From the NCBI GenBank assembly GCA_000092065.1, contig CP000581.1: a stretch of 64,000 nucleotides of DNA; one strand, 5' to 3'. Source of the stretch: Ostreococcus lucimarinus (lineage: Eukaryota). Position 1 is the stretch's first letter. Each line of letters begins with the position of its first letter. Positions 1 through 42,112 of this stretch are shown piece by piece. Under the pieces are notes generated by a model that had not been told where the DNA came from, searched no databases, and saw only the letters and a list, made by a program, of their open reading frames with translations. Made by a program: the position numbers and the translations under genes.

Positions 1-964
1 TGGTGTAGTAGTTCGGTCTGTAAGTCCCGCTTGGACTCGACTTCTGTTGTTGCGGCGCGCTCGAGGTGAACTTGGGATTGAGCAATGTCACGTGCCCATC
101 AGCCGAGCGACCAATGTTCGAAGGCTTCTTCACTTCGACCGGCGCCGGCGCCGGCGGTGCGACGGCGGGCGCTGGGGGCGACACGACGGTGACTTCTTCT
201 TCATCCGATTGCTCGCCCATTGCCGGTTCCTCTTCTTCCGCCAGCGGTTCGGTTGAAGTAAAGCCCGGCGAAGTCGCAGGCGCCTTTGCCATCGCTCCCG
301 GCCCAGTTTTCGTCTTCGGTAAGCTCATCATCGGCCGTTTCGCGAAAATCGAACTTCTCGGCTTCGACGGTAATGGTTTCTTCACCTCTACCGCGCGTTT
401 CACCGCCACTTCCGCCGGTTTCGACTCCACCACCTTCTTCGCCGCCGCCGGCGCGGCTTCCTTCTCGGCGAGTTTGAAAAAGTCATCCTCCTCCAACACG
501 TCCCCCCCCCGTGGCGATCTCGGCGACGTCGGCGCCTCCCCACTCGACCTCAACGCCTCGACCTCCTTCGCGATCTGTTTCGCGTACAACATCGCCGCTC
601 GAGACGTATACTTTTGCCCGATGCGTCCTCGTTCCGCCGCGCTCCACCCGTGCTTTGAAAAAAACGCCCTCGCCTTATCGTTCCCTTTCGTCACCCTGAA
701 CACGTCCAGCTCGTTCGCGCTCCACCGATCCATGTTCGCGCTCTTCACCATGCTCACGTGCACCCCGAGCGATCGATGGACGCCCGAGCAGTCGAGACAG
801 ACGAAGACGCCAAAGTTTTTCGACGTCCACTTCGGGCACGGCGATCCGCAATCGAAGCACGCACGATTACCACCCTTGCGCAGGAGCGCGCCGAACAGTG
901 CATCGCGCGCGGCGTCGTCGATCGCCTTCGCGTTCGCGGCGTCGGCGCGCTCGGGCGGCGCCAT
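1..964 (-). CDS. ADP-ribosylation factor GTPase-activating protein (ArfGAP), 3'-truncated at window edge
   Basis: Reverse-strand translation from ATG (plus cat 962-964) gives [82 protein letters not shown]..., the canonical ArfGAP C4 zinc-finger signature. The ORF stays open to position 1, so it is absent from the track (no stop). Confidence 0.75.
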
Positions 965-1471: not shown

Positions 1472-4400
1472 ATGATGACGAACGAGAGTAAGAAGGTTCG
1501 GGTGTTGACGGCGCTGTGCGTGTCGGATATCATGCGCGTGTGCGCGCCGGAGGCGCCGATTGCGGGGGATGAGGCGATGCGAGACGTGTACGAATTGTTC
1601 TTGGACGCGCTGGGGAGTTTGAAATCCATCGAGAGCGAGGAATTCGAAGCGGCGAAGAGTTTGTTGGTGAACGTGGCGAACATTGGGCTGTGCGTGCCGA
1701 TGTTGGATTTGGAGTGCGCCGGCGCGGAGACGCTCGTGCGCGATCTGTTCAAGGTTTTACTGGACGCGGTGAACGCGGCCAACTCGACCACGGTGACGGA
1801 AGAAATCAGCAAGGTGCTATCGACGATGATTGAAGAAAGCTCGGACGAGGACACTCCGGTGCCTTCTGACGTGACGTTTGAGGTGTTGTCGCGGTTGATT
1901 GATCCCGTGCGCACGGAGAATCCGGCGTCGTACATGTTAGCGGGCGAACTCGTTCGAAAGTGCGAGCATCAGCTGCACACGCCGATTCAGACGTTTTTGA
2001 CGCAGGCGATGCATGGACTCGTGGATGAAGACGACGCGCTCGCGTCCTTGAGTAAACGTCACGTGGATATCATCGAAGAAATCGCGGTATGCGATCCCAC
2101 GGCGCTCGTCACCGTATGGCCTTCGGTGACGGACGATTTGCAGGCGGATGATTTGAGCACGCGACTGCGAGCGGTGAAGCTCTTCCGTCGAGTGTTCGCG
2201 TACGAGGGATCAACAACGGCCGAGGATTACCCGCACTTGCTGCTCGAGTTCGTTCGTCGATTTAACGACAAGGCGGTTGAAGTTCGCGCGGAAATGATCA
2301 AGTGGAGCTCGAAGTTTTTGAAGACACGCGTCGATCCAAACGCCGCGCTCACCTCTGTGCCGGCGGCGACCGTCATGAAGCAACTACGAGAGCGTTTACA
2401 TGATTTCGACGACACGATTCGTACGGCGTCCATCAACGCGTTGTGTGACGTGTTAGACAAACCGACTTCGACTGAGATTTTCCCGCATGATCTCGTTCTT
2501 GAGATCGGTGAACGCATCAAGGACAAGAAATCGGGGGTGCGAAAGACGGCGCTGAAACGCTTGTGCATCGCGTACCGCGCGTACGCGCAACGCTGCGCCG
2601 ATGACGTGCCGGCTTGGGAAATGAAACGATTTGACTGGATCCCGGGCGCTCTTCTGCGTGCTATCACGATTCCAGATGTGCGCTTACACGTCGTCGAGCC
2701 CGTGCTCGCGATGCTTTTCCCGGCCAAGATGTCCGCCGACTTGCGCAGCACCTTCTGGCTGCGCGCTTTGAACCTCGCCGACGCGTTCACCGTTCGATGC
2801 TTGAAGCATTTCTTGCTCGCCAAGTCTCGTATTCAAGCCGACATGCGTGAGTACTTGCTCCTTCGTTCGAAACTGAGCAAGATGAACAAGAAGGAAGGCG
2901 ACGCTGCGTTGACGAAGATCGTAGACGCCATCAAGGTGCACTTTCCGGATAAGCAAAAGGCGAAAACGGCGATGATGGCGTTACATGCGCAGAAAGATGG
3001 GAATGTTTTCAGATGCATTCAAACTATGTTGAATCCGGAGACTTCTTTCGCGAACGCGGTGAAGGCTGAAGAGGACGCCACAAAGCGTGCGAAGTCTAGT
3101 TCACAAGCGGTGGATCAAGAATTCATTAAGACACTATTGTTGAAGATCCAGTCCGCGCCGTTTGGACGTGAGCACGTGCGCGGCACCCTCAAGGCCGCAT
3201 GTAAGGCTACTCGAGCCGCGCAAACGTCAAAGAACACCAGCACCCCTCAAGGAGTTGTCGTCGCACTCGAACACTTGTGCATTCTCGCTGAAACATTCCC
3301 CAAACTGTTCTCCGGATGTGGCGATGAGATTGACGAATTACTCGATGCTAATGATCAATTGACGGTTACATCTACGTGCAAGGTTGTTTCAGAAGCCGCG
3401 GCGGCGCTCAAAGTAACTCCTCGCCGAGGGTCGATTTGGGAAAAGTTGAAGGTGAAGTGCTCGAGCGGCGATCGAAAGCAAGCCAAGTTGGCGACGAAGG
3501 CGCTCGGTTTGTTACAAATGGATCTCGACGAGCGAATCGATGCCACTGATATCATCGCTGGAGCGACTGCCGGGCAGTTGAGCGATGTTTATCTCCATAT
3601 CGTCGAACTTCTCGCCGAAGACTTGGTCGCCGACTCTGATCTCCCCGCCGTGCTCGGCGCCGTCGGCAGCATCGGCACTTTGCACCAGCAAATCTTCATG
3701 TTACAACTCGCCGAAGTCGAGCAGTACGTGGTCCACACCCTTTTGACGCGTCCACCACCAACGGGCCGCATCGCCGTCGGTGTCGTGAGCGATCTCGCGA
3801 CTTTGCAAGCGTATGGTTTGAAGGCGCTTGCCAAGGCGGCGGCGCATCGTTCCGCCGCCGATACCGTCGAGTCCTCCTTCACTACACGCGTGATCGAGCT
3901 GCTCCATAGCTATGCCGATATCGACTCTTACAAGAATGATGGTATGTTTGCGGAATACTCAGGCACAGATGCTGCGCATTTGCGATTCACCGCATGCAAG
4001 GCAATGCTTGGTATTTCTCGCAACGCGGCGATTGGCTTGGTCAAACCCGACGCCTGGATTTGCGTCTCCATGTTCTTGCATCAGTGTGAGTCCGCGACGA
4101 TGCGCCGCGAAATGGTCGCTAAGTTGAAGAGTGGTCTTGTCGTGCGCCCGGGCGAACGAATGCTCTCCATGATGTGGGCAGCGACGCTCGCGCTCGCGCT
4201 CGTCGACAAGGACAAGAGCGTGCGCGACTCGGCCAACGATGTGTTTGCGAACTGGGTCGCGGCTCAACGGCAAAGATCTGCGGCGATTGCGGCGCAAGCG
4301 GCTACAAAGAAAACCAACGATGACCCATCGCAAAAGTTTTTGATCGTCCACATGCCCGAGTACGTGCTTGTGTACATGGTGTTCCTTCTGACGCGCCACC

Positions 4401-5266
4401 CGCTCGCTCCGAAGACTGCAGAGGAAGGCATGGAGGAGCGCGGGCAGAAGTGGCGTCAAGTGCAGCTGATCATGTCCGCCGCCATTTCTTCTCTGACGCA
4501 CGGTACGAATGGTGATGCAATTCCCGTCACGTGCAAGATGCTACGCCGTTTGAAGACGACGCTCGATAAGGTGAATCCGGGCAACTCGGATTTGATTTAC
4601 TCGCTGAGCGATTTAGCGTTGTTCCTCGTCGTCGATCAGGCCGGCACGAAGGGCTGGGATACGAGTAAGTTTCCTGGACACGTGGTGTATCCGGCACAGC
4701 TTTACAAGACGACGCAGTTTATGGCGAGTGGTCCTCCAGCGAAAGAAGGTGCGCAGCCCGGTCTCGGCGATTACAGTCACTTGCCACGCGGTTACGTTAT
4801 CGTGCGTTCGGTGCCGATCGCATCAACGTCGACCACAACCGCCAAGACGAACGCAAAGGCTACTCAGAAACGATCGCGAAGCAAATCTTCGTCTGCGGCG
4901 ACGACGAGCAAGAGTGCGAAGACGCTGAAGCAAACCAAGTTGTCATTCGCAGCGGGAACTCGAGCGATGCCCGAGCGCACCGCGCGAAGAGACGCCGTCG
5001 TCGACGTCGGCGATCGCGACATTGACAATGAATTCGATGATGAGTACGAAAGTGAAGATGACTACGACGAAATTGACGCGAACACGGCGCTTGTCGTTGT
5101 GTCGTCGCCGCCGACCTCGCCTGGGCCGTTGTCGGAAAACACCACTGCGCACACGCAAGCTAGAAAACGCAAGGTCGACAAAGCGCCTCGCGCGTCGGAC
5201 TTGGACGAACCCATGGTCAGTGCCGTGGACCCCGAGGAAAAACGCTCGAGAAGACGACGAAGATAA
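1472..5266 (+). CDS. PDS5: Sister chromatid cohesion protein PDS5 homolog (HEAT-repeat protein)
   Basis: 1293-aa ORF 1385..5266. The N-terminal block KKVRVLTALCVSDIMRVCAPEAPIAGDEAMRDVYELFL...LVNVANIGLCVPMLDLECAGAETLVRDLFKVLLDAVN matches the conserved PDS5 N-terminus, and the tail is basic with K/R-rich patches. The track start 1385 is TTG; the first ATG is 1472. The N-terminus may extend further via an upstream exon. Confidence 0.65.
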   Translation: MMTNESKKVRVLTALCVSDIMRVCAPEAPIAGDEAMRDVYELFLDALGSLKSIESEEFEAAKSLLVNVANIGLCVPMLDLECAGAETLVRDLFKVLLDAVNAANSTTVTEEISKVLSTMIEESSDEDTPVPSDVTFEVLSRLIDPVRTENPASYMLAGELVRKCEHQLHTPIQTFLTQAMHGLVDEDDALASLSKRHVDIIEEIAVCDPTALVTVWPSVTDDLQADDLSTRLRAVKLFRRVFAYEGSTTAEDYPHLLLEFVRRFNDKAVEVRAEMIKWSSKFLKTRVDPNAALTSVPAATVMKQLRERLHDFDDTIRTASINALCDVLDKPTSTEIFPHDLVLEIGERIKDKKSGVRKTALKRLCIAYRAYAQRCADDVPAWEMKRFDWIPGALLRAITIPDVRLHVVEPVLAMLFPAKMSADLRSTFWLRALNLADAFTVRCLKHFLLAKSRIQADMREYLLLRSKLSKMNKKEGDAALTKIVDAIKVHFPDKQKAKTAMMALHAQKDGNVFRCIQTMLNPETSFANAVKAEEDATKRAKSSSQAVDQEFIKTLLLKIQSAPFGREHVRGTLKAACKATRAAQTSKNTSTPQGVVVALEHLCILAETFPKLFSGCGDEIDELLDANDQLTVTSTCKVVSEAAAALKVTPRRGSIWEKLKVKCSSGDRKQAKLATKALGLLQMDLDERIDATDIIAGATAGQLSDVYLHIVELLAEDLVADSDLPAVLGAVGSIGTLHQQIFMLQLAEVEQYVVHTLLTRPPPTGRIAVGVVSDLATLQAYGLKALAKAAAHRSAADTVESSFTTRVIELLHSYADIDSYKNDGMFAEYSGTDAAHLRFTACKAMLGISRNAAIGLVKPDAWICVSMFLHQCESATMRREMVAKLKSGLVVRPGERMLSMMWAATLALALVDKDKSVRDSANDVFANWVAAQRQRSAAIAAQAATKKTNDDPSQKFLIVHMPEYVLVYMVFLLTRHPLAPKTAEEGMEERGQKWRQVQLIMSAAISSLTHGTNGDAIPVTCKMLRRLKTTLDKVNPGNSDLIYSLSDLALFLVVDQAGTKGWDTSKFPGHVVYPAQLYKTTQFMASGPPAKEGAQPGLGDYSHLPRGYVIVRSVPIASTSTTTAKTNAKATQKRSRSKSSSAATTSKSAKTLKQTKLSFAAGTRAMPERTARRDAVVDVGDRDIDNEFDDEYESEDDYDEIDANTALVVVSSPPTSPGPLSENTTAHTQARKRKVDKAPRASDLDEPMVSAVDPEEKRSRRRRR

Positions 5267-5365
5267 ACGCACGACAATAATGTACCAGATAACGACACGT
5301 TAGACAACTAGATGAACGCCCGATAGATTTTTGACATGTACGAAAATGATATTACACAACCATCG

Positions 5366-6367
5366 TTACAGACGCGTCGACCACTCGTTGGTCGACTCGC
5401 TCTTGAATTTGTCTCCAAAAATGTGCAAGAAGACGCCGACCGCGCCTAATCCTGAGCACAAGCTTCCGGCCAAAAAGTAACAGGCTGGAAATACGAGGTT
5501 GCGTCCGCCGATCCAACTGTTTGTCGCCAATACAACGGCCTTTTCACCGTTAAACTTGTACGTGTTGTAGCGATTCTGTATCGTAAACGTGATCGTGTCG
5601 CCCTTGGCAATATCCGCATTGATCACGCCGACGAGTTTACGGAACTTACTCAGCGCCGCAGTGCGCATCCACGTCGCGAAGTCTTCGTCTGTGTCGACGT
5701 TGCCCGTAATCTGCCCCCCACCGCGAGTCGCTTGATCCGTATTCATATTCGTCGGTGCGTAATCCCCGAGCTTATACTTCAGATCCGATTTCCACGCGAT
5801 GTTCGCAGAGTCGATGGTCGTCGCCGCGCCGTTCACCGCCACCGCGTACGAATCGTTGAAAAAACTCCACGCCTGCACGCCGCAAGGGCTAATCTCGGCC
5901 CCCGCCGACGTCTTTTCGTGCGTCGTGCACAAGCCTTGAGACGGTTTCCCCATCAATTGGAAGTAATCCAAGTCCCTCACGAACGCGCGATGATTCTGGA
6001 AAAAGTTGCTCAATTCGTAGTACACGTACACCGGCTTGTTCATGTTCGACTTCGCCGTGAGCGTCACCGTGCACGTCGTCCCCGCGCCGTTAAACGACAT
6101 TTGCATCGCCTGTTCCGCCGAGGTCGGGAAAAATCCGCTCGCGCACGTCGCCGCGTCGTCGTATCTCTTCACCAGCGTGCGCAGATCGTTGGCGGTGTTG
6201 AAGATCGCCGCACCGACGGCGAAACACGCGACGCCGATGCTGATCATCAACTTCGCCGTGAGCGCGGGCGTGAGCGCCGGTCGCCTGGCCCAGAGCTGCT
6301 GCTGCGAGAACGCGCTGAACGCGGGCTTGCGCGACGTCGGCGCGGTCGTCCGCGCGGCGCCGGCCAT
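5366..6367 (-). CDS. CDC50/LEM3 (TMEM30) family P4-ATPase flippase beta subunit
   Basis: 333 aa with two transmembrane segments flanking a large ectodomain. It carries the CDC50 hallmark YYELSNFFQNHRAFVRD. Confidence 0.8.
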   Translation of the reverse strand: MAGAARTTAPTSRKPAFSAFSQQQLWARRPALTPALTAKLMISIGVACFAVGAAIFNTANDLRTLVKRYDDAATCASGFFPTSAEQAMQMSFNGAGTTCTVTLTAKSNMNKPVYVYYELSNFFQNHRAFVRDLDYFQLMGKPSQGLCTTHEKTSAGAEISPCGVQAWSFFNDSYAVAVNGAATTIDSANIAWKSDLKYKLGDYAPTNMNTDQATRGGGQITGNVDTDEDFATWMRTAALSKFRKLVGVINADIAKGDTITFTIQNRYNTYKFNGEKAVVLATNSWIGGRNLVFPACYFLAGSLCSGLGAVGVFLHIFGDKFKSESTNEWSTRL

Positions 6368-33290: not shown

Positions 33291-36216
33291 TCATTGAATG
33301 CGCGCACCAACGCGCGCACAGTACTCTGACAATGCCACTTGAACTTCCTGAGGGGTTTGGACGACGATGGATGCGATCGGGCGCTGAGAGGAGAATCGTG
33401 CCAGCGTCTCGGCGACGTGGCGCCTGACGTCGACGACATCCGGCACCGGATCCTTCTCCTTCACCGCACCTTGGGTGAGCTTGGAGTAAGACGCGGCGTA
33501 TCCGGCGTTGGCTTCAAGCTCTTCGAGTAAGGCGTCGTCGTCCTCGCCGACGGGTTCGTCGTCGTCGGGCTTGATGCACTGCTGGACGACGCCCGAGAGG
33601 AGCTTAGCAAAGGCTCCTGGACGATCGACCACGGGTGGGCACTCGGTGAGAAACTTAAGCGCAGCCACGCACGTGAGCTTACGCTCGGTCTTTCCCGTGA
33701 CACCAACGATATCCACCGCGACTACGTTTTCTAAAATCATGTCAAAGATGCCCTGCTGCACTTTGTTCATGCTATCCATCACGCTCGACGGACCGTGTTT
33801 GACGCACAACGCCGACGTGAACACGACCAAGCATCTGCTAAACTTGGGAGTGCGGCTAGTTTGTTGACGTTGAAACAGGATGCTCCAGATCGTGGGCAAA
33901 AATGGCGCCCACGCATCCAAGGCGAGAGATTCCACGAAAGAATTTAAAATGTAAAATCCTTGATGATCCTGCGCCTTGCTCGAGACAAGCTTTTGGAACA
34001 CGCCCAAGACACCTTGCAAGTGACCGCTGGCGACAATGGCTTGCGAATTCTTGGTGAGGTAAGCTTTGAGCAAGCGCACGAGCGGGGTGACGTTCGCGCG
34101 CCGGTCCCACATGAGCGGAGTCAGTAGAGCGGGAAAGATGGCCATGTACGACTCGGGGAGCGTCGCGCCCGCCGGATAACTCTCAATCATCTGCGCCAAC
34201 AACTGGAAGACGTATGGAGTGAACTCCACGACGTCGGCCGTCAACACGTGTTGATAGGCCGGAAAGAGCAACTGCTCAAACTGACCCATGAGCGCGGCTT
34301 CGTTGCTGACGTTTTTGACCAACGATGCTACGGACTCGAACAAATAATGCGCAAAGGTTGGGTTTCTAGGATTCTTGCACAGCTCGAGCAACATCCCACT
34401 CAACTGCTGCAAACAAATCGTCGCCACAGGTTTGACGTCTGCGCCGCTAAACGCGACGACGCGCATGACGCACTTCATCACATATTCATTTTCCGCGCTA
34501 TCGGGAATGGTGAACGCGTGGAACATGTTGGTGTAGAGTTGCTGACTCAAAGGCGCGATGTCGCCCGAGACGTATCTCGGCACGCCCGGACCGTCGCGAA
34601 CGGTGAGCAGACGTTCAAAGCAATTTGCCGCGTAGGAGTGCACGACGTTTTCATCTGTCGCGAGCAACTGCACAATCGCCGGTAGCAACGGCCCAGCGAT
34701 CGTCTTGGGGATCTGTTGTCGAAACATCGTCAAAAACTTGAGTGCGTCGGCGCGCACAACGGCGTGCGACGCGCCCTTCGCTGCCTGCAGCTCGGGCGCG
34801 ATGTGTTGATTGAAAAAGTCAATAATGTTGACTAAATCGTTCGTCTCCGTCGCACCTTTCACGAGCGACTTCGAGCGCACCGTCAAAGCCATGACCAAAT
34901 AAATTGCAGCGTCTTTCGCCTTCCAAAACTTCTTCGGGTCCGCGGAGTACTGCGCCAACAATGAGCTGACGTAGCCAGTGACTGCGCTTGTGACGTGCTC
35001 GGGAAATTTCGCCGTGAGCGCCTTGACGAGCTCGCACGCGCCTCGACGACGCGTATCTGCGTCACTGCCCTCCAGATCCCGTCGGATGTATTCCACGTGA
35101 TTATCGTTGAATAACTCTTCGTCTTCATCTCGAAACTGCAAGTTTGGAATGATGATGTTTTCGCACACTTGACGAAGCGTGTCGGGCGACTCGAACAATT
35201 TGTGATGCACGCTACTCGCCACTGTGGTGAGAAACTTCACACCCGACGTCACTAAATGATCCCGATTCGTCGCCAGGTCCGTGGACATGAGAAGTGTCCA
35301 CACATCTTGGACGAACTGTTGCAAGTAAGGCGCAAACTCTTCCTCATTTTTCTCGATGTAGAGGTTGATATTGTCGCACACCGCCGCCTTGAGTTGGTCA
35401 GCCTCGCTCGCTTTATCGTCATCCGTACTCGCCAATCCGGGCGGAGCTTGGTACGTCAAGAACTTGTGAAACACGCCCATCCACCCCGCCATGGCATCTT
35501 CGAAAACTTCGGGCAACTCCTGGCTATTCAAACTATAGAAGACTCTGCAAATCAACCGCAAGCACTGCAACAACTGACGCGTGAGCTCAACATTCGCCCC
35601 GCTCGCGTCTAACGCCGCGCTCACCTCCAGCGTCAGCTCAAGCAACGGCTTCGAAAACGTATCCAACACATACTTGAGCTCTTTATACAGCTCCTCTGTC
35701 TTCATCGCTCCGCGGTATCGCTTGAATATCGCGTTCGCCGTCGTCAACACGCCCGCCACGTCCCGAAAGTCCCTGTTCCCCGCGCTTCCGAGTCTCTGCA
35801 CCAGCTCCGGAAGTAATCCTTCCCATCGTTCGGGGAAATCGACCGCACATATTATGCTCAACGCTTCGCTCAACTGCGCCGACACCAGCTTGGGCGCGCG
35901 CAGCATCAGCCCCACGATGGCGCCTCGGCAGCGCGTCTTTTCGCCCTCGCTCGTCCCCACCGGTTTCACCGCCCCCACCTCATCCGGTTCGCTCGGGTCC
36001 CAGTTCTTCTTCACCATGTTCTTAAACGTCACCGCCGCGCTCTGTCGCGTCATCGCATCGACGTGGTCGCTCGCCGCGAGCTCCAGGACGCGCAAAAGGA
36101 ATCCATCTTGGATCGATCTCGAGCGCAGAAACTCTTCAGCGCTCGCGCGTTGCGACGCGTCAGCGCTGAGCGACGCCTGCAGCGCCGCGACGAGGGCTGA
36201 TGTGTCGTCGGACATC
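33291..36216 (-). CDS. CSE1: Exportin-2 / CSE1 (CAS) importin-alpha re-exporter
   Basis: The N-terminal importin-beta N domain and CSE1 blocks align with yeast Cse1: LQASLSADASQRASAEEFLRSRSIQDGFLLRVLELAAS...AAVTFKNMVKKNW...VDFPERWEGLLPELVQRL...VLTTANAIFKRYRGAMKTEELYKELKYVLDTF. The track start is TTG at 36233; the true ATG (MSDDTSALVAAL) is at 36216. Confidence 0.85.
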
Positions 36217-36468
36217 GATCCAGCGGACGCCAACGCGAAGCGGCGAGGACTCGACGCGAAGCGCGTGAAACTGAGGAGGAAGAGCGCAGCGGCGGCTCAA
36301 CGCGCGTTCGAACGCGCGTGACGCAAGACGCGAGACGGGTGCGGGCGCGTGCGTGGCAAATGATGATGAATGCATTAAATCGAGAATGTGTGTTTAATGT
36401 GTGTTTAAGAAATGTTTGCGCGTGTGTGATAAAGAATATGTTGAAGGCTGAGCGCGAAAGGCGTCGCC

Positions 36469-38394
36469 TCAGCTCGGTCCCATCGAGATTGGAACACCTT
36501 GCGAGGAAGCCTTGGAGCCAAGTTTTTCCTTCATGGTGTCCGTGGTCGAGCCCGGGGCGTCTTTGTAGTTGCCTAAAAACCTTGAGCGGAGTTCGCGGAA
36601 CATGGCGTCAGCCCTGTTGCCGCTCGTAGCGATGCCATCCTTCGTGCGCGAGACGCCGTCGAGCATGTCGTCGATGGACACCAATTGTCTACCGTCGCGT
36701 ACGCTCAATAATGCGGCTTCGTTGGCGACGTTGGCGAGCTCGGCGCCGGTGAAGCCTGGTGTGGCGCGAGAAATAACGTCGCACACAACGTCGACGTCTT
36801 CCTCGAGATCCAAACCGCGCAAGTGCACTGACAAGATTTGCGCTCTCCCTTGCTGCGTTGGCGGGCCGACAAACACGCGTCGCGTCAAACGACCGGGACG
36901 CAACAGCGCCGGATCGAGCGCGTCCGGTCGGTTCGTCGCAGCTAAAATCAAAATTCCACTGTCCTTGGCGAATCCGTCCATCTCTACCAGCAATTGATTG
37001 AGCGTTTGGTCGCGTTCTTCGTTCAGACCCGCGCCTCGCCGCGATCCGACGGCGTCGAGTTCGTCGATGAAAATAATCGCAGGTCTGGCCTTTCGCGCCT
37101 CGGCAAACAGCTCGCGAACGCGCGCCGCACCGCGGCCGACGAACAGTTCGACAAACTCGGACGCGGCGACGGGGAAAAACGCAACGCCGGATTCGCCCGC
37201 CACCGCGCGAGCGAGTAGCGTCTTACCCGTCCCCGGCGGTCCGACCAAAAGGCACCCCGTGGGAAGTCTGCCGCGAACGTTCTTGTACTTTTCGGCGTTC
37301 TTCATGATTTGCACCAATTCAAAAAGTTCGGCCTTTGCCTCTTGCACGCCCGCCACGTCGGCGAACGTCACCTTGTCGGCTTCGTCTGTGCGCGCAGCCT
37401 TTTTCCGCTTTTTATCGCCCGCACCGCTCTGTCTGTTGATGGCGTTCCGCATGATGATCATGAGCGGAATGATAGGCAACCACATCGCGAGCACGGTGAA
37501 CATACCGCGGGACGCCAATCTCGACACCGCCGCGGGAACCGCGCCGAATTCCACCCCCGCGGCTTCGAGCTTCTTCATCAGCTCTGCGTCGCCGACCAAT
37601 CGTTTCGTCTGCAGCGTTCTCGCACGCCCAACCGCCGCATTCGGCTTCAAATCGTACAACAATCGCGTCGACCCTTCCTCAAATCGCACCGTCGATATCT
37701 TCTTGCCCTTTAAATCCTTCAAAAACGAACTGTACATCGTCGTCGGCACCACCGGCGCCGCCGCCTTCTTCGCGTTGTGTCCCCTTATCGCCATCCCCGC
37801 CCCGACCGTCGCCGCCATCACCAACCCCAGCCTCCCCAGGCGCGTTCTCGCGCTCATCGCGATCGCTCGCGCCGGCGTCGCGATCACCAACCACACCAGC
37901 ACCGCGAACGCGCGTCGCGCCACCAGCCCGAGCAGCAGCGTTCGCGTCGCCACCCAGCGCCACGCCGAGAACGGTTTCCGCTCCACCGGCCCGAGATCAT
38001 CCGACGCCGCGCTCGCGCTCGCGCTCGCGTCATCCTCCCCACTCGCGCGTTCCGTCGCGCCGCCGTCGCCGCCATCGCGCGCCGCCGTCGCCGTCTTCGT
38101 CACCGCGTCCCGCTCGACGTCATTGCCTTCGCGCGCGTTATCCACCCCCTGCGGCGTCGACACCGCGCGCGCGCGGCTCTCGAGCCCCCGCGCGAGCGCG
38201 CCGTTCGCACCCGCATCGCTCGCGCGCGCTCGCGCGCCGAGCGCGGCGCTCGCGACGCCCCGGCGGTCCCGCGAACGCGTCGCGCGCGACGCCGACGTCG
38301 TCGTCGCGAATCCTCGCGCGCGGACGACGCCGCGCGGCGCGCTCGCGCGCGCGCGCGCGGCGCGCATCGCGGGCGACGGCATCGTCGTCGTCAT
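36469..38394 (-). CDS. FtsH-like AAA+ ATPase with FtsH N-terminal membrane topology but lacking the M41 peptidase domain
   Basis: A/R/T-rich presequence, two TM segments flanking an extracytoplasmic domain, then the AAA module GVQEAKAELFELVQIMKNAEKYKNVRGRLPTGCLLVGPPGTGKTLLARAVAGESGVAFF...IIFIDELDAVGSRRG...ATNRPDALDPALLRPGRLTRRV. The ORF stops about 90 aa after the AAA lid, where FtsH would begin its HEXXH protease domain. No downstream coding space remains before the CSE1 start. Confidence 0.7.
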   Translation of the reverse strand: MTTTMPSPAMRAARARASAPRGVVRARGFATTTSASRATRSRDRRGVASAALGARARASDAGANGALARGLESRARAVSTPQGVDNAREGNDVERDAVTKTATAARDGGDGGATERASGEDDASASASAASDDLGPVERKPFSAWRWVATRTLLLGLVARRAFAVLVWLVIATPARAIAMSARTRLGRLGLVMAATVGAGMAIRGHNAKKAAAPVVPTTMYSSFLKDLKGKKISTVRFEEGSTRLLYDLKPNAAVGRARTLQTKRLVGDAELMKKLEAAGVEFGAVPAAVSRLASRGMFTVLAMWLPIIPLMIIMRNAINRQSGAGDKKRKKAARTDEADKVTFADVAGVQEAKAELFELVQIMKNAEKYKNVRGRLPTGCLLVGPPGTGKTLLARAVAGESGVAFFPVAASEFVELFVGRGAARVRELFAEARKARPAIIFIDELDAVGSRRGAGLNEERDQTLNQLLVEMDGFAKDSGILILAATNRPDALDPALLRPGRLTRRVFVGPPTQQGRAQILSVHLRGLDLEEDVDVVCDVISRATPGFTGAELANVANEAALLSVRDGRQLVSIDDMLDGVSRTKDGIATSGNRADAMFRELRSRFLGNYKDAPGSTTDTMKEKLGSKASSQGVPISMGPS

Positions 38395-38617: not shown

Positions 38618-41600
38618 ATGGCGGCGGCTTCGACGACGACGACGCGCGCGCGCGACGACGACGCGGGACGACGCGGGACGACGCGGGACGACGCGATGCG
38701 CCTCGACGCGATCCTCGAGAGCGTTCGAAGGGACATCGTCGGACACGGGGCGACGTTCGGCGGGGCGTACGGGACGAAGTCGCTGGTGTACGCCGACTAC
38801 ACGGCGAGCGGACGGGCGTCGCGAGCGGTGGAGCGGTGCGTCGCGCGAGACGTGCTGCCGATGTACGCGAACACGCACACGTCGACGTCGACGACGGGGT
38901 CGCAGACGTCGTGCTTTCGAGCGGAGGCGAGACAGGTGGTGGCGCAGTGCGTGAACGCGCGGGTGGGATACAGCGATAGACACGCCGACGTGGTGACGTT
39001 TACGGGAAGCGGGAGCACGAGCGCGATCGATCGGTTGGCGCGAGCGCTCGGGATGCACGTACCGTTACCGGTGAACGCGCCGAGGGAAGCGAGGCCGGTC
39101 GTGTTCGTCGGACCGCACGAACATCACAGTAATATTTTGCCCTGGCGCGAGTCGTGCGCGATTGTGGTGGAAATTCCAGAGGAAGAGAGCTCGGGAATGG
39201 TGGACGTGGACGCGTTGCGCGCGGCGCTGCGCGCGTACGCGTCACACGCGACGCTGATTGGAAGTTTTAGCGCGGCGAGTAACGTGACGGGGGTGAGGGC
39301 GGATGTGAATTTAATCACGGAGACGTTGCATCGAGGAAACGCGTTGGCGTTGTGGGACTACGCCGCCGCCGCGGCGTACGTCGACGTCGACATGAACCCG
39401 GTAGTTTTCGACGAAAACACCGGTGCGTTGAATCCGTACGTATACAAAGATGCGATATTTATGTCACCGCACAAGCTTCCGGGAGGGCCGGGTGCGCCCG
39501 GGATTTTAGTGGCAAAACGCGCATTGTTCGTGAACGAAGTGCCGAGCGAACCGGGCGGAGGAACTGTCTTTTATGTCACGAGCACCGATCACCGGTATTT
39601 AAGCAACAGAGTGGAGCGCGAAGAGGGTGGGACTCAAGACATCGTTGGAAGCATCCGCGCTGGCTTGGCGTTCCAAATGAAAGCTAACGTGGGGACGTCG
39701 TTGATTGAAGCGGCGGAGGAACGACTGCGACGACGATTGTTCGACGAGCTGGAGAAGGATGAGAATATTTGCTTACTCGGACCTCGGGCGAATTCGACGA
39801 CGAAGCGCTTGCCTATTGCGTCGTTTCTCATACGAGCCCCAGCGGTGGATTCGAAAAGTAGGTTTCTACACTACTCATTCACGTGCGCGGTGTTGAACGA
39901 CGTCTTCGGCGTGCAGGCGCGAGGCGGATGCGCGTGCGCAGGGCCGTACGCGCATCGTCTTCTCGGAATATCTCCAGCTGATGCAGCCGCGATCGAGGCG
40001 CACTTGCTAGACAAAGCCGAAGTATTACGACCTGGTTTTGCGCGCGTCAGTTTGCCATACTTCGCGTCTGATGCTGAGATTGAGTACACGTTGGCCGCGG
40101 TACGCGCCGTCGCCGCGCACGGCTGGCGCTTGCTGCCGATGTATCGCATGGACGCCAAGACGGGTGAATGGAGACACGCCCTTCGAGCACGAAGTTTCCC
40201 TGAACGCAAGTGGCTCGCACACATGCAGTTTCCTGTAGATTCGGAAGAAATACACGAATCACCGCCGAGTGAAGAGGAGATATCTCGCCGACTCGACGAA
40301 CAATTGAGCGTCGGGATGCGCATTCTGGAAACGTGCGGTCAGTATCGCGACGGTGAACAACAAGGCAAAGCGAAGAACGGTCAGTTACGCATGCCGAATT
40401 CAGGTGGTATGGCTGCGGATGAGCGCATGGTGCTCGCTGGAGGCCGCGGCGACGACGACTCGAGGCTCGCTTACGACGAGGGCGAAGAGGACGACGACGC
40501 TCCTGAGCCGACGACGAATATCGAGCGCGGCGACGCGCTTCGTTGGTTCATGTTTCCGTCCGAGGCGGCTGCCTTGCTTTCAATCGCGCTTCCAGAGCAC
40601 TCGCACAGCGGAATACTACCACTTAGTTACGTGCCTCCAACTGGGACGATCACCGGCGCATTGCGTCCGCCGAATATTTGCGGCGCTCGCGAATCGGCAC
40701 CAAACGCACACGGTCAAAGTTACCGAACCGAAAGCAGGAAACACCCACTGCGCGTGACGGAAGAGTCGGGAAGTATTCGATCGGGCTTGATTCATCAGCG
40801 AGCGGCACCGTTTTGTGTAGGTGATGCACCGAGCGCACCACAGCCTTCAGTCGCAGAGGCTGAATTTCGCGCCGAATCGACGCTCGAACCGCGCGTGCGA
40901 GAGCTCACACTCGACGTGTCACCACCGATGAAAGAAGTGACGGTGACGGAAGATAGCATGTCCGAAAAACGTGTTCCGATGACAAATGATCAAACGCTTG
41001 ATGGTGCCGTCAGAGAAAAAGAAGTGAAAAAGAAGAGACACAAGTTCGCCAAGCCGTCACCAAAGTTGTTGCGCATGGTGAACCAGGCGATACAAGACTT
41101 TGACATGATTCAACCCGGAGACCGTATTTTGCTTGGTCTTTCGGGAGGTAAAGATTCTCTCGCAATGTTACACATTCTGATGTGCATGATGTCGCGTTAT
41201 CCGCCCGGAACATTTACTCTCGCGTGCGCGACAGTAGATCCCGGCACCGAGGCGTTCAATCCTCGGCCTTTGATTCCTTATGTGGAATCTCTCGGCATCG
41301 AGTACCATTATCTCGAAGAAGAAATCATGGCGATGGCGGACGCGCACATGACTGGTGACAGTATTTGTGCGTTCTGCGCGCGTATGAAACGGGGCGCTCT
41401 ATACACGTGTTGTCGCAAGTATGGTTACAACAAGCTCGTTCTAGCACAACATTTAGATGACTGTGTGGAGAGTTTCCTGATGAGCACAATGTACAACGGA
41501 ACGATGCGAACGATGAAAGCGTCGTATCTCATCGACGAGGGTGATATCACTGTCATTCGTCCCGCCATTTACTTACGCGAGAAGGCTTTACGTGACTTTT

Positions 41601-42112
41601 CTTACGAAGCGGGATTGCCCGTCATCAACGAAAATTGTCCGGCGTGCTTCGAAGCGCCCAAGGAGAGACAGAACATCAAGAAACTTTTGTCTCGCGAAGA
41701 AAGTTCGTTCCCATCGCTGTATTCGTGCATGCGTAATGCGCTAATGCCACTTTTTGATCCTGCCGCTATGGATATACTATCTATGATTCGAGAAACAATC
41801 GATGGGAGAAACAAGTTTAAGGAGCGCGCCAAGGCGCAACGCGCCGAATCTCTCGCAAACGGGAAGTGCAATCCCAAACGCGGAGAAGTTTCAATCGCCA
41901 AGAATGGTGCGAACACCGAGCCTGGGACTGAGCTTAACATCAACGAACCGATAGAACTGTCCAGTGCGTCAGAGATGCAGCTACTGGCAGAGTTAAATAA
42001 AAGGCGTCGTGAACGCATTCGCCAAACCACGAAAACCAACGACAGTGAATTCGACGCCGATTTAACGGAGAAGCAAGTGTTTTGTACCGCAGAAGGATGC
42101 AAACGTGAGTAG
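38618..42112 (+). CDS. Fusion protein: class-V aminotransferase (cysteine desulfurase/selenocysteine lyase-like) domain + TtcA-type PP-loop tRNA 2-thiocytidine synthetase domain
   Basis: Track ORF 36998..42112. The first roughly 540 aa are antisense to FtsH; the real start is assumed at ATG 38618 (MAAASTTTT...). The N-terminal domain shows [15 protein letters not shown]...[16 protein letters not shown], a PLP-Lys motif [17 protein letters not shown] and GGCACAG. The C-terminal domain aligns to E. coli TtcA: [41 protein letters not shown] to [54 protein letters not shown] to CSLCSRLRRGILY, and [15 protein letters not shown] to LGHHRDDILQTLFLN. A 9-bp repeat (gacgcggga) x3 lies at 38655-38690. 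Confidence 0.7.
   Translation: [1164 protein letters not shown]

Follow-up and report, generated by a model that had tools for sequence, protein, structure and literature searches.

The window analysed here is a 64,000-nucleotide (64-kb) stretch of Ostreococcus lucimarinus DNA. Its minus strand carries an uninterrupted ORF that starts with ATG, ends with a stop codon at 36469-36471 and encodes an FtsH-like ATPase (Table). The distance to the start codon of the next gene, given as about 250 bp in an earlier note made from the sequence, measures 253 bp. In the syntenic relative L001 the genes follow one another in the same order, Aminotran_5/PP-loop, FtsH-like, Cse1, with a gap of 270 bp between the last two. 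Public metagenome annotations give this gene the loose labels 'AAA+ ATPase' or 'Zn protease'.

Table. Features of the FtsH-like gene and its downstream neighbour, in window coordinates.
Feature	Position	Strand	Remarks
CDS of M41-less FtsH-like ATPase (FtsHi3 orthologue)	36469..38394	-	complete, single exon, 641 aa + stop
Residues 1-134: transit-peptide-like presequence, then acidic low-complexity stretch	37993..38394	-	predicted disordered
Residues 144-210: two consecutive predicted helices	37765..37965	-
Residues 218-287: FtsH_ext (periplasmic-type) alpha/beta domain	37534..37743	-	between membrane segments
Residues 290-323: TM2 helix, then Lys/Arg-rich stretch	37426..37527	-	KD maximum 2.14; Lys/Arg-rich stretch on the ATPase side
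Residues 381-510: AAA+ core	36865..37254	-	Pfam AAA, E 1e-41
Residues 537-577: AAA lid, small subdomain	36664..36786	-	Pfam AAA_lid_3
Residues 591-641: tail in place of M41	36472..36624	-	51 aa
Intergenic spacer before CSE1/exportin gene	36216..36468	-	253 bp; no M41 coding potential
CSE1/exportin gene	33291..36215	-	974 aa; next downstream on the same strand; ATG at 36215

The first 60 residues of the protein hold 13 Arg, 16 Ala, 14 Ser/Thr and only two acidic residues (Asp43 and Asp60), a composition that fits the transit-like presequence claimed in the earlier note; together with the plant orthologue it points to a role in targeting. The first of the two helices that follow (144-182) has a hydrophobic core at 162-180, and the second (185-210) aligns with the TM1 of the family. 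The Pfam match to FtsH_ext (PF06480) is weak and below cut-off in the window protein (E 0.068, 13.8 bits) and passes the cut-off in many orthologues. In the AF2 model residues 221-286 adopt an alpha/beta fold, and pLDDT exceeds 90 in the 10-residue blocks that span 221-250 and 261-280; the top Foldseek match is full-length E. coli FtsH, with 414 columns aligned. Helices thus flank an FtsH_ext fold, as the FtsH membrane topology proposed earlier had it. The 'N-terminally relocated M41 domain' that reviews describe for FtsHi3 is this normal FtsH periplasmic domain, PF06480, and not a swapped protease.

The AAA module, likewise, is as intact as the earlier note had described it. Walker A (GPPGTGKT, 385-392), Walker B (IIFIDE, 440-445), the pore loop LFVG with a family-specific Arg421 (417-421), the DGF inter-subunit motif (473-475) and the second region of homology, TNRPDALDPALLRPGR (487-502), were all located. 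Over 81 family sequences Walker A and B, V419-G420, DGF, the sensor-1 Asn488 and Arg499/Arg502 are invariant, and the pore-loop Phe418 is kept in at least 90%.

What follows the ATPase is not a protease. A Pfam scan found no Peptidase_M41 (PF01434) in the window protein, the HEXXH motif (HE..H) is absent from all 641 residues, and tblastn with a green-algal M41 query against the whole window returned nothing, the best E being 3.0. The TIGR01241 FtsH_fam profile aligned over positions 22-406 of 598 and scored 410.8 against a cut-off of 600. With neither M41 nor HEXXH the protein is not a canonical FtsH, and the lack of M41 that had been read from the sequence is upheld. The earlier note had the ORF stop about 90 aa after the AAA domain, a figure that needs correction: the stop lies 131 aa past the Pfam AAA core, and the protein ends 64 aa past the AAA lid and 51 aa past the whole AAA plus lid module. 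The sequence that it quoted there, SIDDMLDGVSRTKDGIATSGNR, is found at residues ~574-595.

The 51 residues that take the place of M41 begin with a predicted helix (ADAMFRELRSRF, 595-606), continue with a variable low-complexity spacer and close with a conserved terminal peptide, QGVPISMGPS (36472-36501). The helix is amphipathic and aromatic, and reads FRELRSRFLGNY in the window protein and ELxKLFPWMPS in angiosperms. The terminal peptide is invariant and specific to the clade: Mamiellales have (Q/N)G(V/L/A)(P/S/G)(I/L/M)S(M/Q)(G/P)P(S/T), core chlorophytes QP(L/M/Y)GS and seed plants LGYQ(T/S)LS. Compared with a 72%-identical syntenic orthologue, whose C-terminus falls at the same residue, the tail has 76% amino-acid identity, and 44% of the identical residues are encoded by different codons. 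High amino-acid identity despite differing codons indicates that the tail is under purifying selection. This two-part conserved tail is the sole under-described feature of the gene.

These data bear on whether the gene model is simply truncated, as a pseudogene, through an assembly or sequencing error, or because a downstream peptidase exon was overlooked. The unusual length for an FtsH speaks for truncation, and nothing else does. Against it, NCBI, JGI and ENA assemblies contribute several further proteins of 641 aa to the 90%-identity cluster; the Logan assembly SRR1179203 also yields the same 641-aa protein, from DNA that is 100% identical and therefore not independent. Orthologues at 70-80% identity share the ...PISMGPS-stop ending, and the same C-terminal peptide ends orthologues from three Mamiellales clades. 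The stop codon is genuine, and not the sequencing error that had been considered earlier. A missing M41 exon is ruled out, since a domain of ~200 aa (600 nt) is too big for the 253-bp spacer, and M41 coding potential was found neither in the window nor in L001 or L002; the earlier judgement that such an exon is unlikely was sound. Furthermore, sets derived from transcriptomes contain complete ORFs without M41 (MMETSP P0105; EukProt plant ORFs P0132 and P0134). P0101, an 828-aa protein with M41, was considered as a full-length isoform and rejected as a transcript-assembly chimera, with a partner switch at residue ~440. Together with the purifying selection on the tail, these results leave truncation with next to no probability.

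Relatives of the window protein share its architecture. M41 is missing from every one of the 234 single-AAA relatives recovered in Mamiellales, core chlorophytes and land plants, as judged from precomputed Pfam lists and a phmmer M41 screen. These relatives carry 8-219 residues after the AAA module, typically 30-90, some of them being fragments. Members with an identifiable source organism all come from green algae or land plants. A cluster 48% identical to the window protein (P0087) includes Micromonas pusilla CCMP1545 XP_003063012.1, and the clade of the window protein belongs to another genus of Mamiellales. The Marchantia protein P0117 matches the window protein with E 2.7e-111, and in more than 20 plants the proteins closest to it bear the name 'probable inactive ATP-dependent zinc metalloprotease FTSHI 3, chloroplastic'. 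The link to Arabidopsis AT3G02450 runs through such RefSeq/UniProt-derived orthologue names, not through its own sequence. Most of the top of the library-wide phmmer list is taken up by proteins that have 2-6 AAA modules in tandem and so gain from additive scores; canonical single-AAA FtsHs are few in it.

A neighbour-joining tree of 70 AAA modules (243 columns, Kimura distances) recovered the M41-less family as monophyletic in 194 of 200 bootstraps, against an outgroup limited to FTSH7/9, two canonical FtsHs of plastid type and M41-linked modules from bacteria. The clade includes the land-plant 'FTSHI 3, chloroplastic' proteins and excludes FTSH7/9 and the other M41-bearing FtsHs. FTSH7/9, which entered the tree as database sequences, are monophyletic in 200/200 bootstraps, join the streptophyte FTSHI3 clade in 0/200, and form a monophyletic group with the family in only 14/200. 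Within the family, Chlorophyta (187/200) separate from Streptophyta (200/200), as expected under vertical descent. Against most family members from land plants and core chlorophytes the window AAA module reaches 310-340 bits, against FTSH7/9 255-267 bits. The pore-loop signature FVGRGAAR (FVG-R-GAAR) is present in all 31 family members and in none of the 39 other modules.

The gene is therefore a new member of the known FtsHi3 family, in which the lack of a protease is already established in plants. By its FtsH-type AAA+ module, its FtsH_ext domain, the absence of M41 and its place in the tree, it is very probably the Mamiellales orthologue of plant FtsHi3. Since the window protein falls in the FTSHI3 clade, the earlier finding is correct and not new, the M41-less architecture having been described for plant FtsHi3. 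One could argue that a canonical plastid FtsH of Mamiellales shed its M41 independently and only resembles FtsHi3; domains are easily lost, and the outgroup samples the named paralogues incompletely. Such convergence is, however, hard to credit given the monophyly with a topology like that of the species tree, the derived FVGRGAAR confined to the family, and a tail layout common to the whole of it.

What might such a protein do? Because the ATPase and pore residues are all invariant or nearly so, the likeliest mechanism is that of an unfoldase or translocase driven by ATP, and the unfoldase or translocation motor put forward in the earlier note agrees with what has been proposed for the plant orthologue. 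FtsHi3 would be a nuclear-encoded, plastid-targeted, membrane-anchored FtsH descendant that probably lost the whole M41 domain once, before the chlorophyte/streptophyte divergence, and whose AAA+ motor remained fully competent. It may form a ring-shaped ATPase, presumably a hexamer, at the envelope membrane of the chloroplast. Polypeptides would be gripped by the aromatic pore loops (Phe418), threaded or extracted at the expense of ATP without being degraded, and then released or handed to partner proteins.

The composition of the presequence is consistent with a chloroplast envelope location, and the localisation itself is drawn from the Arabidopsis orthologue. The protein might instead be targeted to mitochondria or another membrane, and serve there as an Msp1/ATAD1-like extractase. 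In picoalgae an Arg-rich presequence is an ambiguous signal, and this one shows little conservation, with 43% identity to that of the orthologue. Yet the land-plant orthologue resides in the chloroplast envelope and the members with an identifiable source are confined to green algae and land plants, and we regard a location outside the plastid as improbable.

FtsH hexamerisation is normally driven by the M41 protease ring, and a partner could supply the M41 that it needs. FtsHi3 might join M41-bearing envelope FtsHs of the FtsH7/9 type in a mixed hexamer, as a subunit without proteolytic activity that modulates or opens their protease ring, instead of forming an autonomous motor. FtsH7/9 and FtsHi3 have the FtsH_ext domain and the envelope location in common, and the DGF inter-subunit signalling motif is intact. 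A common FtsH7/9-FtsHi3 complex has been suggested (PMC8197885), and the literature places them in the same group (PMC9020784). The tree argues against it, as FTSH7/9 are not the sister of the family, and we hold a mixed hexamer to be somewhat unlikely. It would be a variant of the mechanism that leaves the identity of the gene as it is.

The short conserved tail probably stands in for M41 in assembly or docking. A more specific idea, which we put forward with considerable doubt, is that the tail is a two-part docking module and not a remnant. It could fasten the ATPase ring to a separate partner, much as HbYX tails do for proteasomal ATPases; the partner might be a protease, a translocon or a scaffold. 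If the tail docks, FtsHi3 would be a 'split' AAA machine whose function is set by its partner. As an intron-less, single-copy orthologue in a compact Ostreococcus-like genome, the gene could offer a simple system for finding partners and substrates.

Several membrane-bound AAA+ systems invite comparison. Msp1/ATAD1 extractases combine a membrane anchor with a single AAA+ ring and no protease, and thread membrane proteins from the bilayer. They come from another AAA subfamily, possess just one TM, at the N-terminus, lack FtsH_ext and are not found in plastids; their likeness to the window protein is a functional analogy only. FtsH7/FtsH9 of the chloroplast envelope resemble the window protein in their FtsH-type AAA module and in an FtsH_ext domain set between TM helices. 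They differ in keeping a full M41 with HEXXH and in their pore loop, YVGMGASR, and they stand in a clade of their own.

The Ycf2/Orf2971-FtsHi motor (FtsHi1/2/4/5 and FtsH12; Fhl1-3 and Ctap1 in Chlamydomonas) is likewise built of FtsH-derived, membrane-anchored AAA+ proteins, which are proteolytically inactive and reside in the inner envelope. Structures of this import motor (8xku, 8xqw, 8xks) are among the top Foldseek matches, with a structure-based identity of only 22-43%. In its subunits a pseudo-protease domain persists and makes up the lower ring (bioRxiv 10.1101/2024.09.02.610899), whereas nothing in the window protein resembles M41. AtFtsHi3 does not belong to this complex.

The closest counterpart is FtsHi3 of land plants. 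Arabidopsis FtsHi3 (AT3G02450) was already known to lack M41 (PMC8197885). It resides in the chloroplast envelope in a ~1-MDa complex, apart from the 2-MDa Ycf2-FtsHi motor, and the literature is divided on whether it touches importing preproteins. FtsHi3 is retained in Passiflora species that have lost ycf2 and most motor subunits (PMC7488351). The window protein differs from those of land plants in detail: overall identity is 36-41%, its disordered N-terminal region is longer, and its terminal peptide reads QGVPISMGPS, compared with (P)LGYQTLS in seed plants. In common with land-plant FtsHi3 it has a presequence, FtsH_ext set between two membrane segments, an intact AAA+ module and, in place of M41 and HEXXH, a C-terminal tail of only ~45-50 aa (51 in the window protein); both fall in one NJ clade and carry the FVGRGAAR signature. 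For plant biologists, to whom an FtsHi3 without a protease domain is familiar, the finding changes little. The M41-less architecture, the catalytic residues and the two-part tail are shared by very compact picoalgal genomes and angiosperms, a conservation that argues for a core, ancient plastid function, which would be independent of the Ycf2-FtsHi import motor.

The FtsH-like gene (36469..38394, minus strand) is an uninterrupted frame of 641 codons with an ATG start. Its AAA module, claimed in an earlier note, is retained, with Walker A and B, pore loop and second region of homology all present. Pfam finds no Peptidase_M41 match in the protein and an HE..H motif is absent. Likewise, of the 598 profile positions in the NCBIfam FtsH equivalog TIGR01241 only 22-406 are aligned (score 410.8 against a cut-off of 600), in agreement with the claim that the protein ends before M41. 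The stop had been placed about 90 aa past the AAA module; its position before M41 stands, whereas from the end of the AAA+lid module we count 51 aa, the earlier figure hinging on the module end chosen.

Features of the FtsH-like protein, its C-terminal tail and the divergent neighbouring gene
Feature	Residues	Nucleotides (strand)	Sequence or source
Disordered region	1-134		AlphaFold2 model
Long helix	144-182	37855-37965 (-)	AlphaFold2 model
Long helix	185-210		AlphaFold2 model
FtsH_ext	218-287		Pfam, weak match
Alpha/beta domain	221-286		AlphaFold2 model; block-mean pLDDT >90 over 221-250 and 261-280
TM2 helix, then AAA module	290-323		AlphaFold2 model
AAA core	381-510		Pfam, E 1e-41
Walker A	385-392		GPPGTGKT
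Pore loop	417-420		LFVG
Walker B	440-445		IIFIDE
Second region of homology	487-502		TNRPDALDPALLRPGR
AAA lid	537-577		Pfam
Tail	591-641	36472-36624 (-)	
Tail linker (first tail element)			R(T/A)(K/R)xG(V/I)
Tail helix; protein end disordered	595-606		AlphaFold2 model
Amphipathic aromatic tail helix			FRELRSRFLGNY; ELxKLFPWMPS in angiosperms
Terminal peptide, Mamiellales			(Q/N)G(V/L/A)(P/S/G)(I/L/M)S(M/Q)(G/P)P(S/T)
Terminal peptide, core chlorophytes			QP(L/M/Y)GS
Terminal peptide, seed plants			LGYQ(T/S)LS
Aminotran_5/PP-loop fusion gene		38618-42112 (+)	1164 aa

A tblastn search with a green-algal FtsH M41 domain found no M41 coding sequence, either in the window's 64 kb (best E = 3.0) or in two related loci, bearing out the view that a missing exon is unlikely. 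The next gene on the same strand encodes a CSE1/exportin (974 aa; IBN_N, Cse1, CAS_CSE1) whose ATG at 36215 leaves 253 bp, matching the gap of about 250 bp noted before. The Logan assembly SRR1179203 encodes an identical protein with Cse1 253 bp further on; its DNA is 100% identical to the window and is thus not independent evidence. The 90%-identity cluster of the protein has 92 members, several of them 641 aa (NCBI, JGI and ENA assemblies). In the syntenic relative locus L001 gene order matches the window (Aminotran_5/PP-loop, FtsH-like of 617 aa, 270-bp gap, Cse1), and the FtsH-like protein, 72% identical, terminates at the residue homologous to the window protein's end. Between the two loci the tail is 76% identical, with different codons at 44% of identical residues, indicating that it is translated and under purifying selection; the AAA module is 91% identical, with different codons at 45%. 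Complete M41-less ORFs also occur in transcriptome-derived sets (MMETSP P0105; EukProt P0132 and P0134). An MMETSP transcript with M41 (P0101, 828 aa) was rejected as a full-length family member, being an assembly chimera: for the greater part of residues 161-440 it shares 88-97% identity with the M41-less P0055 (50% in a single window of 40 residues), and past ~440, at the conserved pore-loop motif SEFVELFVG, it changes into a canonical FtsH of the thylakoid type. Chimeras of this kind could mislead automatic annotation in this family.

The divergent upstream gene, 223 bp from the FtsH-like ATG, fuses a class-V, cysteine-desulfurase-like aminotransferase to an ATPase of the PP-loop type (ATP_bind_3) whose CxxC motifs recall TtcA. 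L001 has this fusion as well, as a 1140-aa protein encoded at 2207-5629 (-); a sulfur-donor/thiolase fusion enzyme is a possible identity. G+C is ~60% overall, which together with the neighbouring genes points to a green picoalga with a compact nuclear genome. Taken in steps of 2 kb over the 64 kb, G+C alternates between ~0.53 and 0.70, and it reaches 0.68 at 38-40 kb, just upstream of the FtsH-like gene.

M41 is absent from all 234 single-AAA relatives recovered (some of them fragments; window protein and P0101 not counted), which carry 8-219 residues, typically 30-90, past the AAA module. Three Mamiellales clades are represented; one includes Micromonas pusilla CCMP1545 (XP_003063012.1), and the window's clade is of a different genus, probably Ostreococcus-like. 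The remaining relatives belong to core chlorophytes (Chlorella, Parachlorella, Myrmecia, Apatococcus) and to land plants from Marchantia on. A Marchantia query matched more than 20 plant proteins source-named 'probable inactive ATP-dependent zinc metalloprotease FTSHI 3, chloroplastic'; an M41-less FtsH is already a known kind of architecture. FtsH7/9 have been put closest to FtsHi3 (PMC9020784). We built a neighbour-joining tree, the sole method used, from 70 AAA+lid modules (243 columns, 200 bootstraps), including real FTSH7/9 database sequences; the modules sampled were those of the family, FTSH7/9, two plastid-type canonical FtsHs and bacterial M41-linked proteins, with no named FtsH1/2/5/8/11/12 or FtsHi1/2/4/5 and no AT3G02450. 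The M41-less family was monophyletic in 194/200 bootstraps and FTSH7/9 in 200/200, and streptophyte FTSHI3 grouped with FTSH7/9 in none of the 200. Inside the family, Chlorophyta (187/200) and Streptophyta (200/200) formed separate branches, agreeing with the species tree as expected under vertical descent. A derived signature directly past the pore-loop aromatic, FVG-R-GAAR, marks all family members (31/31) and none of the other modules (0/39); at this position FTSH7/9 have YVGMGAS/AR. Scores of the window AAA module are higher against most land-plant and core-chlorophyte members (310-340 bits) than against FTSH7/9 (255-267 bits). From the signature, the scores and the tree, with its limited paralogue sampling, we conclude that M41 was probably lost once, ahead of the chlorophyte/streptophyte divergence, and that the window gene is the likely Mamiellales orthologue of FtsHi3. 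Bit-score lists are headed by tandem proteins (P0010, P0012, P0239-P0242 and others; the few with names belong to Mycobacteriales and Acidimicrobiales), because domain scores add up over their two to four FtsH-like AAA modules, which precede one HEXXH M41.

In place of M41, a common tail layout recurs across the family: linker, amphipathic aromatic helix (in W-containing versions in mosses and chlorophytes), variable spacer and fixed terminal peptide. The spacer has no fixed length and, in two Mamiellales clades, a Gly/Asn/Ser-rich composition, whereas the extreme C-terminal peptide is fixed inside each lineage (QGVPISMGPS in the window's Mamiellales clade; QGVSISQGPS and QGVG(L/M)SMPPT in the other two). 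Judged from sequence, this combination looks like a putative short linear docking motif; the further reading, of a split AAA machine defined by the tail as its docking module, we regard as unlikely. No description of the two-part tail was found in the FtsHi3 literature examined, and nothing at the locus apart from the tail goes past existing knowledge.

An AlphaFold2 model (81-sequence alignment, mean pLDDT 73.6) places helices around an alpha/beta domain. Against the PDB, Foldseek ranks a model of full-length FtsH from E. coli first (414 columns aligned), followed by Arabidopsis and Chlamydomonas Ycf2/Orf2971-FtsHi motor chains and FtsH crystal structures. Thus the N-terminal half has ordinary FtsH topology, as had been proposed. 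Residues 1-60 hold 13 Arg, 16 Ala and 14 Ser/Thr, with Asp43 and Asp60 the only acidic residues. A long additional helix (144-182), with a 19-residue hydrophobic core at 162-180, lies directly before the TM1-aligned helix and may either cross the membrane as a third segment or lie in its plane; the Marchantia orthologue has a comparable amphipathic stretch. Reviews describe the protease domain of FtsHi3 (and FtsH7/9) as 'swapped' or added N-terminal to the ATPase (PMC8197885, PMC6460958, PMC9020784). The region concerned (window residues 218-287) is the FtsH periplasmic domain PF06480 and there is no domain swap; the statement stems from the InterPro name of PF06480, 'Peptidase M41, FtsH extracellular'.

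Across 81 family sequences, Walker A Gly385/Gly388/Gly390/Lys391/Thr392, Walker B Asp444-Glu445, pore-loop Val419-Gly420, the DGF inter-subunit motif (473-475), sensor-1 Asn488 and Arg499/Arg502 are invariant, and pore-loop Phe418 is kept in at least 90%. This pattern would be expected of an active, ring-forming, substrate-threading AAA+ motor, not of a decaying pseudo-enzyme. The protease ring normally drives FtsH assembly, and an M41-less protein working in mixed rings with FtsH7/9-type partners is a live alternative. The residue pattern supports the earlier suggestion of a protease-less unfoldase or translocation motor; as it lacks a protease chamber, it would be expected to unfold, extract or translocate polypeptides, not degrade them.

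Arabidopsis FtsHi3 resides in the chloroplast envelope in a complex of ~1 MDa, distinct from the Ycf2-FtsHi motor of 2 MDa; mutant plants are pale, and the protein has been suggested as an alternative import motor (PMC8197885; PMC9020784). In Passiflora species without ycf2, FtsHi3 is the only FtsHi kept (PMC7488351). According to the same paper, FtsHi3 was not found in association with importing proteins, in conflict with a review (PMC8197885). Together the plant data fit a motor role but do not settle it. In the Chlamydomonas motor all six core subunits keep pseudo-protease domains (bioRxiv 10.1101/2024.09.02.610899). Thus FtsHi3-type proteins differ in architecture from these subunits, the window protein and its FtsHi3 relatives having no M41.
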